Below are positions 12,211 to 12,259 of a DNA stretch of 64,000 bases, piece by piece (the stretch's first letter is position 1; every line of letters starts with the position of its first letter). Made by a program: the position numbers and the translations under genes. Source of the DNA: an uncultured Candidatus Saccharibacteria bacterium (GTDB taxonomy: Bacteria; Patescibacteriota; Minisyncoccia; Phycocordibacterales; Phycocordibacteraceae); assembly GCA_964638585.1 (NCBI GenBank), contig CAZXAN010000004.1, positions 708 to 64,707 of the forward strand. Reading direction: 5' to 3'. The notes beneath the pieces were generated by a model. That model was given only the letters and a program-made list of their open reading frames with translations. It was not told the DNA's origin and made no database searches.

Positions 12211-12259
12211 CTCTTTCGTCCTTTTGGACTCATCAGTACGGACACACATCCGTAAAGAG
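12211..12259 (-). ncRNA. type III hammerhead self-cleaving ribozyme (candidate)
   Basis: Minus-strand RNA 5'-CUCU|U|UACGGA-UGUGUG-UCCGUA-CUGAUGA-GUCC-AAAA-GGAC-GAAA-GAG-3'. Invariant CUGAUGA and GAAA; G10.1-C11.1; A15.1-U16.1; H17 is U; stem I 6 bp, stem II 4 bp, stem III 4 bp (open). Confidence 0.6.

Follow-up and report, generated by a model that had tools for sequence, protein, structure and literature searches.

The RiboJ insulator consists of the sTRSV hammerhead and an extra hairpin placed before the ribosome-binding site. In minimal hammerheads, U17 combined with a C16.2-G15.2 pair, which gives the cleavage triplet CUU, is less favourable than GUC. The sTRSV hammerhead sequence is GTC followed by ACCGGATGTGCTTTCCGGT CTGATGAGTCCGTGAGGACGAAAC, and as RNA it carries the triplet GUC and then ACCGGA-UGUGCUU-UCCGGU-CUGAUGA-GUCC-GUGA-GGAC-GAAAC (PMC9519601). 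The sTRSV ribozyme has been crystallised and is highly active, and natural type III hammerheads with both loops show cleavage that is orders of magnitude faster at low Mg2+, with loop-loop contacts that comprise a reverse-Hoogsteen pair and usually also a U:A:U triple (PMC6155905). In prokaryotes, hammerheads flank ORFs for small non-conserved proteins (PMC6155905, De la Pena et al. 2017; PMC3088659, Perreault et al. 2011).

Our analysis of a 64,000-nucleotide stretch of DNA from an uncultured Candidatus Saccharibacteria bacterium (the window) points to a further case, located in the spacer that separates two small genes of the same orientation. We think it likely, from the sequence, that this is a genuine and probably active type III hammerhead of an sTRSV-like sub-family. 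By itself it would be one more hammerhead of a known class, in a setting already described for prokaryotes. Its sub-family, the sTRSV-like type III hammerheads, is abundant in Patescibacteria and phages, yet falls mostly under the Rfam cut-off, and the succession of hairpin, hammerhead, GUUCUUU, long hairpin and Shine-Dalgarno sequence provides a concrete, testable model for the role of a prokaryotic hammerhead. A literature search for hammerheads together with Patescibacteria or CPR found no paper linking them, which is not proof that the link is unreported.

An intact type III core on the minus strand

The minus-strand RNA from 12259 to 12211 is 49 nt long and reads CUCU-U-UACGGA-UGUGUG-UCCGUA-CUGAUGA-GUCC-AAAA-GGAC-GAAA-GAG (parts listed in Table 1). 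Three helices surround the core, of which I and II end in loops and III is left open, and all positions of the invariant core are present and in register; the closing pairs are G12229-C12218 (G10.1-C11.1) and A12214-U12256 (A15.1-U16.1). Even when the fold is left unconstrained, stems I and II are predicted, and the cleavage triplet is CUU. The original prediction, made from the sequence, had called a type III hammerhead here, and that call is borne out by a full-length match to Rfam Hammerhead_3 and by an independent family model, R1. Its core positions, numbering, closing pairs and H17 all lie on the minus strand at the coordinates it gave, and its predicted cleavage site stands as far as sequence can indicate. 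Of two reservations that it had voiced, the first loses its force. Stem III had been thought short, but 4-5 pairs are normal, and only the first 4-5 are kept among 123 relatives. A contact between loops I and II had also been doubted; it may nonetheless form, as both loops fit the family consensus (UGWGUR and NAAA) and resemble those of sTRSV.

Table 1. Coordinates of the predicted hammerhead and of the features discussed around it; positions are those of the window except where a locus label (L) is given.
Feature	Position	Strand	Basis or remark
Predicted type III hammerhead ribozyme	12211-12259	minus	sequence, Rfam RF00008, family model R1, shuffles
Stem III	12256-12259 / 12211-12214	minus	4 bp
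U17	12255	minus	H17 rule (not G) satisfied
Predicted scissile bond	between 12255 and 12254	minus	
Stem I	12237-12254	minus	6 bp, loop UGUGUG
CUGAUGA (C3-A9)	12230-12236	minus	sequence
Stem II	12218-12229	minus	4 bp, loop AAAA
GAAA (including G12-A13-A14 = GAA)	12214-12217	minus	sequence
Upstream hairpin GACACGA-(10 nt)-UCGUGUC	12261-12284	minus	7 bp; whole-spacer fold; ends 5 nt before the cut
Strongly structured spacer	12285-12583	minus	fold z-score -6.3 for 12120-12590
GUUCUUUGA motif	12199-12207	minus	4 nt past stem III
23-bp hairpin, loop UGUU	12141-12190	minus	folds; ends directly before the Shine-Dalgarno sequence
Shine-Dalgarno AGGGAG (12135-12140) and ATG (12126-12128)	12126-12140	minus	sequence, ORF list
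Downstream gene, 179 aa	11589-12128	minus	no known domain; four other related protein clusters only
Upstream co-directional gene, 160 aa	12584-13066 (ATG at 13066)	minus	signal-peptide-like N-terminus, no known domain
First gene of the run, 119 aa	13418-13777	minus	
Best sigma-70-like promoter	13827-13855	minus	TTGACA-17-TAATAT, consensus match only; upstream of 13418-13777
LM (leader motif) copy 1	13070-13172	minus	slot before the 160-aa gene
LM copy 2	11416-11517	minus	slot before the 109-aa gene (11086-11415)
LM in other loci	L001 5905-6003; L004 915-1000, 1440-1537; L006 150-258		
LM in other loci	L253 5523-5578; L255 3019-3088	minus	

Match statistics and the Rfam cut-off

The Rfam model Hammerhead_3 (RF00008) aligned to 12211-12259 over its full length (model positions 1-54) at 33.8 bits, with E=9.4e-6 in a 301-nt search and E=0.002 for the 64-kb window and all 4227 families. 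Under E-value reporting this was the sole ribozyme match in the window; at gathering thresholds, Rfam reported tRNAs only, and the score falls short of the RF00008 gathering cut-off of 48.5 bits. That cut-off serves curation and does not describe a biological feature. Applied to 20 clear sub-family relatives (L150-L253), the same model gave 32.6-52.1 bits, and only 2 of them reached the cut-off. Most members of the sub-family thus lie below it, so that default annotation misses most of them. The original prediction had proposed a covariance-model search as a check and had named the absence of a significant hit as evidence against itself. The search did return a match with a low E-value, which taken formally on the cut-off does not count as significant, yet the same holds for 18 of the 20 relatives.

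A strict descriptor, which demands the complete core, G10.1-C11.1, A15.1-U16.1, H17 and at least 5, 4 and 4 bp in stems I, II and III, picked out 12211-12259 as the single site within the 64-kb window. It found no site in 1500 dinucleotide-preserving shuffles of the window, where a relaxed form (at least 3 bp) found one; the chance expectation for such a hammerhead is far below 1e-3 per window. The window holds no second hammerhead, which a circular-RNA or retrozyme-like unit would need. Model R1, a covariance model built from 33 phage type III hammerheads with the window copy excluded, likewise detected one site, 12211-12259, at 64.7 bits over the full model and in the middle of the family span of 36-76 bits, a score that is inflated because the phage set was gathered with a pattern fixing the core and stem II. 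Agreement with the phage copies that is independent of this pattern is found in the length of stem I, in loop I (UGUGUG), in loop II (AAAA) and in the flanks.

A sub-family common in Patescibacteria and phages

By its sequence, the hammerhead is assigned to a large sTRSV-like sub-family, frequent in phages and in the genomes of Patescibacteria, with a characteristic design: a 6-bp stem I with a UGUGUG-type loop, a stem II of GUCC-NAAA-GGAC, and a stem III of 4-5 bp. A scan of viral contigs with the pattern CTGATGAGTCC-N3-8-GGACGAAA gave at least 120 matches; about a quarter of the matches listed were type III, many with the exact design seen in the window. The phage copies that resemble it have a stem I of 6-7 bp with a (U)GUGU(G) or (U)GAGU(G) loop, the same GUCC-NAAA-GGAC stem II, a stem III of 4-6 bp and, frequently, an upstream hairpin. 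The pattern TGWGTR-N6-CTGATGAGTCC-NAAA-GGACGAAA, run over 185,579 species genomes, also gave at least 120 matches, and about three quarters of the 80 matches listed belonged to Patescibacteria/CPR lineages (among them Saccharibacteria, Parcubacteria, Paceibacteria, and Kaiser-, Nomura-, Woese-, Ames-, Collier-, Shapiro- and Gracilibacteria). When 100 of the genome-scan loci were searched with R1, 141 matches were obtained, some with other stem II sequences.

Non-GUC triplets predominate in the Patescibacteria copies. Across the genome-scan set we counted UUC 28 times, CUC 27, GUC 23, UUU 10, GUU 9 and CUU 6, in addition to others; since CUU occurs in six further copies, the triplet in the window is unusual and not aberrant. 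Several relatives lie in clusters: six hammerheads were found within about 3 kb in one locus (L135) and six over about 5 kb in another (L233), four of them within about 2 kb, and a Kaiserbacteria contig (L207) carries four in 8 kb. With Rfam, we also observed two hammerheads and three twister-P1 matches in L179 and two of each in L235, in each case within 8 kb. The twister-P1 matches in relatives scored 58.7-62.3 bits, just under the cut-off of 67.2.

Covariation and the closest copies

Support for the helices comes from compensatory change. The 33 aligned phage copies, without that of the window, were 94.7% paired and had a covariation score of 0.61 (0.14 for shuffles). Across 123 aligned copies the score was 0.76, whereas shuffles gave 0.17 and slid registers about 0.1; stem I was 99.2% paired, each of its pairs occurring in all four Watson-Crick types, and pairs 1-4 of stem III were 96-99% paired. 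The fifth and sixth pairs of stem III dropped to 74% and 49%, from which we conclude that a 4-bp stem III is the norm. Stem II showed compensatory, both-sided changes in matches that had not been selected by the search pattern. Among distinct relatives, G10.1-C11.1 was kept in 132 of 137 and A15.1-U16.1 in all 137.

The closest copies (L137, L214 and L226) have the stems I and II of the window copy over 45 nt, at 100%, 97.8% and 100% identity, and the same CUU. Their stem III is ACCU/AGGU where the window has CUCU/AGAG, which amounts to two compensatory pair changes. At C16.2-G15.2 the window copy itself differs in both bases from most phage copies, which have G-C there. These three copies lie on short contigs, one of them binned as Pseudomonadales, in hammerhead flanks unrelated to those of the window, and their hammerheads are followed by promoters of the TTGACA/TATACT type. 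This distribution points either to a module that has spread recently or to CPR or phage DNA that was binned wrongly.

An intercistronic position among small orphan genes

The hammerhead lies within a run of small minus-strand genes (119, 47, 160, 179 and 109 aa) between NusA and TrmB/PilB; the flanking genes encode RNase Y, ClpP, inorganic pyrophosphatase and NusA on one side, and a TrmB-type regulator and a PilB-type ATPase on the other. In translated comparisons of window proteins with a Candidatus Kaiserbacteria contig, RNase Y was 88% identical over 119 aa and another protein 86% over 284 aa, and PilB and NusA were 60-69% identical to those of other CPR contigs; these values would place the organism among the Patescibacteria. 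The proteins of the small-gene run had no match in Pfam, PHROGs, NCBIfam or PADLOC, and just four clusters out of 5.8 billion were related to the 179-aa protein. Near the hammerhead island neither an integrase nor a phage gene was detected, a search for similarity to phage DNA over 11000-14000 gave no match, and no protein homology was found between the flanking genes of the window and phage loci with similar hammerheads.

The 119-aa protein has a weak, sub-threshold similarity to STIV_B116-like proteins, and STIV B116-like is recorded for its counterpart in L004 (470-781); the two genes have a conserved promoter/leader sequence, ATCGATAAGCAATCKGGCTTATCAAG, in common. Elsewhere in the window, 59052-59132 on the minus strand matches part of the AdoCbl (cobalamin) riboswitch model (positions 21-100 of 149) at 47.7 bits, with a cut-off of 50 and E=1.2e-5.

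The original prediction had placed the motif about 85 nt upstream of the 179-aa gene and inside a 450-nt leader. The closeness to the gene is confirmed, with 82 nt between the hammerhead and the ATG; the supposed leader is better described as the 455-nt gap (12129-12583) that separates the 160-aa and 179-aa genes. No promoter was predicted between these two genes, the sole good promoter-like site on the strand being that at 13855-13827, so that an intercistronic position is the simplest reading for the hammerhead. The earlier idea that cleavage trims an mRNA 5´ end is thus partly retained: cleavage would define where the downstream message begins, but would also split a polycistronic RNA.

Comparison of orthologous loci showed that the ribozyme is not conserved with the 179-aa gene. 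Loci from the same strain (L007-L012) carry the hammerhead and are 100% identical over the compared stretch; the strain is present in the DNA runs ERR3094292-ERR3094302. In three related species (L001-L006) the neighbourhood is kept and the 179-aa orthologue is 75%, 58% and 59% identical, yet these loci contain neither CUGAUGA..GAAA nor a Hammerhead_3 signal. Mutated cores at homologous loci, which the original prediction had regarded as telling against it, were not what we found: the orthologous loci are without the ribozyme altogether, and none has a decayed copy. More generally, the genes downstream of 131 hammerheads have no protein family in common, and the ribozyme therefore has no fixed link to any one gene family. 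It is typically found a few tens of nucleotides past the end of a same-strand ORF across the family. In another subset, -35/-10 hexamers are enriched downstream of the hammerhead, and these copies may mark the ends of transcription units.

Flanking hairpins, a GUUCUUU element and a structured spacer

The elements around the hammerhead recur in the same order in relatives (for example L180, L179, L235, L165 and L240). Perfect hairpins of at least 8 bp were present in the 44 nt upstream of 33% of 119 relatives (11% of background windows), and hairpins of 16 bp or more in the 120 nt downstream of 11.6% of 121 relatives (0.7% of background). Between hammerhead and downstream hairpin, GTTCTTT was found 4-16 nt past the ribozyme in 13 of 124 Patescibacteria copies and in 0 of 113 viral copies; relative to background windows (0.7%), this is an enrichment of about 15-fold. 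In Patescibacteria copies the motif continues (G/C/A)A. The GUUCUUUGA motif of the window is complementary, with one G.U, to AAAGGAC, which is loop II and the 3´ arm of stem II, and has an alternative pairing with 12391-12400. Pairing of GUUCUUU with AAAGGAC is predicted in several relatives; in post-cleavage folds of 18 relatives, no single consistent partner for GUUCUUU emerged.

Six relatives (L153, L155, L174, L197, L202 and L219) have another kind of upstream structure, in which the 30 nt before the hammerhead can fold into an H-type pseudoknot whose linker is A-rich, as in ACGGC-CU-GGGCAG-U-GCCGU-AAA-CUGCCC. This pseudoknot may be a protective 3´-end structure of the upstream cleavage product.

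The spacer upstream of the hammerhead is itself strongly structured. In its unconstrained optimum, 12384-12400 pairs with 12201-12215 (15 bp, four of them G.U) and stem III is not formed; the CUCUU at 12384-12388 mimics the 5´ strand of stem III and takes its 3´ strand, and the GUUCUUU motif is likewise drawn into the long-range helix. The unconstrained fold is at -162.8 kcal/mol and the hammerhead-constrained fold at -159.6 kcal/mol, 3.2 worse before any tertiary energy is counted. We considered SRP, RNase P or a riboswitch for this 300-nt spacer and dropped them, as there was no Rfam match at E≤1. The spacer shares GGGnnUGCAGACCCCA with the leader of the orthologue in L001 (5700-5830), and the two also have GAAGCAGGYGGUA..YCCRCCAAUC in common, with one compensatory change; at the level of blastn the spacer and that leader show no similarity, and they have no Rfam match.

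A leader motif in equivalent slots

A candidate RNA element, LM, occupies two other slots of the small-gene run. It comprises a P0 hairpin, a helix of at least 12 bp (UUCCUUUCAGAG/CUCUGAAAGGAA), a hairpin GGAAAC..GUUUCC, the sequence G[UA][UA]C[UA]UU and a Shine-Dalgarno sequence, and its helices show some compensatory change. In three of three related species, LM precedes the 179-aa orthologue, the place at which the window has the hammerhead module. It also follows directly after two hammerheads in consecutive slots of a metagenome contig, and is present in one viral contig. The G[UA][UA]C[UA]UU that precedes the Shine-Dalgarno sequence after LM copies resembles GUUCUUU. Rfam at E≤1 gave no match over 13070-13172 or 11416-11517, nor in L001, L004 or L006. 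We regard LM as a candidate processing element or ribozyme.

Discussion

The reading that we find most likely is that the 12211-12259 hammerhead is a self-cleaving element that would process or insulate a transcript. In this model, the gene run would be transcribed from the promoter near 13855-13827 and through the ribozyme site. As the 49-nt motif emerges, it would fold, with the hairpins of stems I and II docking through their loops and stem III closing, and would then cleave itself between 12255 and 12254. The upstream product would be left with a 3´ end made up of the 12261-12284 hairpin and GCUCUU with a 2´,3´-cyclic phosphate. The downstream product would begin with a 5´-OH and carry the ribozyme body with two stable hairpins, the GUUCUUUGA element, the 23-bp hairpin, the Shine-Dalgarno sequence, which that hairpin is predicted to leave exposed, and the 179-aa ORF. 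Cleavage would thus uncouple the two cistrons and give the downstream message a fixed, structured 5´ end that is independent of upstream sequence, and might be expected to have consequences for stability or translation. The organism encodes RNase Y, so the chemistry of the 5´ end could affect decay.

The other explanations differ in how much of the evidence they can accommodate. That the motif is a chance match to a short consensus might be argued from its score below the Rfam gathering cut-off; the shuffles without a single strict match in 1500, the E-value of 0.002 that remains after correction for all 4227 families, the R1 score, and the fit of loops, stem lengths and flanks to a large covarying family effectively refute this idea, to which we give next to no weight. 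A very doubtful proposal, to our minds, is that the hammerhead is a relic with little or no activity, which a phage or mobile element brought in and which is retained through recent arrival only. There is a single copy in 64 kb, the hammerhead is absent at orthologous loci, the CUU triplet is sub-optimal, and the complete identity of the locus copies over the compared stretch offers no within-species sign of constraint, all of which a relic would explain. It would less readily explain why the core nucleotides and helices are all intact, why C16.2-G15.2 is changed on both sides relative to the G-C of most phage copies, why CUU recurs in independent copies with compensatory changes in stem III, and why the flanking module (upstream hairpin, GUUCUUU, long hairpin and Shine-Dalgarno sequence) is intact as well.

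It is also conceivable, if unlikely, that the hammerhead is conditional, with alternative pairings that block its folding or unfold it after cleavage and so modulate expression of the 179-aa gene. Two candidate pairings were seen, one between 12384-12400 and 12201-12215, the other between GUUCUUU and a stretch made up of loop II and the 3´ arm of its stem. The 15-bp helix of the first would sequester the 3´ strand of stem III at a cost to the hammerhead fold of merely 3.2 kcal/mol, and the second gains interest from the roughly 15-fold enrichment of GTTCTTT just past Patescibacteria hammerheads and from its predicted pairing with AAAGGAC in several relatives. Yet the long-range helix is known from this one sequence and includes four G.U pairs, complementarity to stem II is lost in the variants GAACUUU, GCUCUUU and GUUCAUU, folding during transcription favours the local hammerhead, and no ligand or protein partner is indicated. 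We prefer the reading of a self-cleaving processing or insulating element.

The equivalence of slots between LM and the hammerhead is the most interesting lead of our analysis. Judging from where it is found, LM could be a self-cleaving ribozyme of a new kind, or else a site dedicated to processing by an RNase; pistol, hatchet and twister-sister were found by guilt-by-association logic. The broader proposal is a bold one that we put forward as quite improbable: hammerhead and LM would be RNA modules that can stand in for each other and that, in this lineage of Patescibacteria, punctuate operons made up of small orphan genes. If it is true, transcript punctuation by hammerheads could be general in CPR gene expression and hidden by Rfam thresholds.

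Comparison with known systems

The window hammerhead and that of sTRSV have much in common: the type III topology, a 6-bp stem I, a loop I starting UGUG, an identical core, an identical GUCC/GGAC stem II with a 4-nt loop ending in A, and a short stem III. They differ in the triplet, which is CUU in the window and GUC in sTRSV, in loop I (6 nt compared with 7) and in loop II (AAAA compared with GUGA). Their contexts also differ, since sTRSV is a circular satellite RNA that uses its hammerhead for rolling-circle processing, whereas the window copy is part of a bacterial chromosome and sits between protein genes.

Like the type III hammerheads of prokaryotes and phages, the window copy is intergenic, lies beside small non-conserved ORFs and has a stem I two base pairs longer than stem II, and its relatives cluster with more hammerheads and with twister ribozymes. 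Unlike them, it is solitary, and the chromosomal island that holds it is bordered by NusA and TrmB/PilB. With glmS the likeness is one of functional analogy only: both are self-cleaving RNAs in a bacterial 5´ leader that would give a product with a 5´-OH, but the window hammerhead has no ligand pocket, no relation to glmS in sequence or fold and no sign of metabolite control. The closest parallel in arrangement is RiboJ, which the window resembles in its order of hammerhead (12211-12259), hairpin (12141-12190) and Shine-Dalgarno sequence (12135-12140), and we infer that this hairpin-hammerhead module may be a natural counterpart of the engineered insulator.
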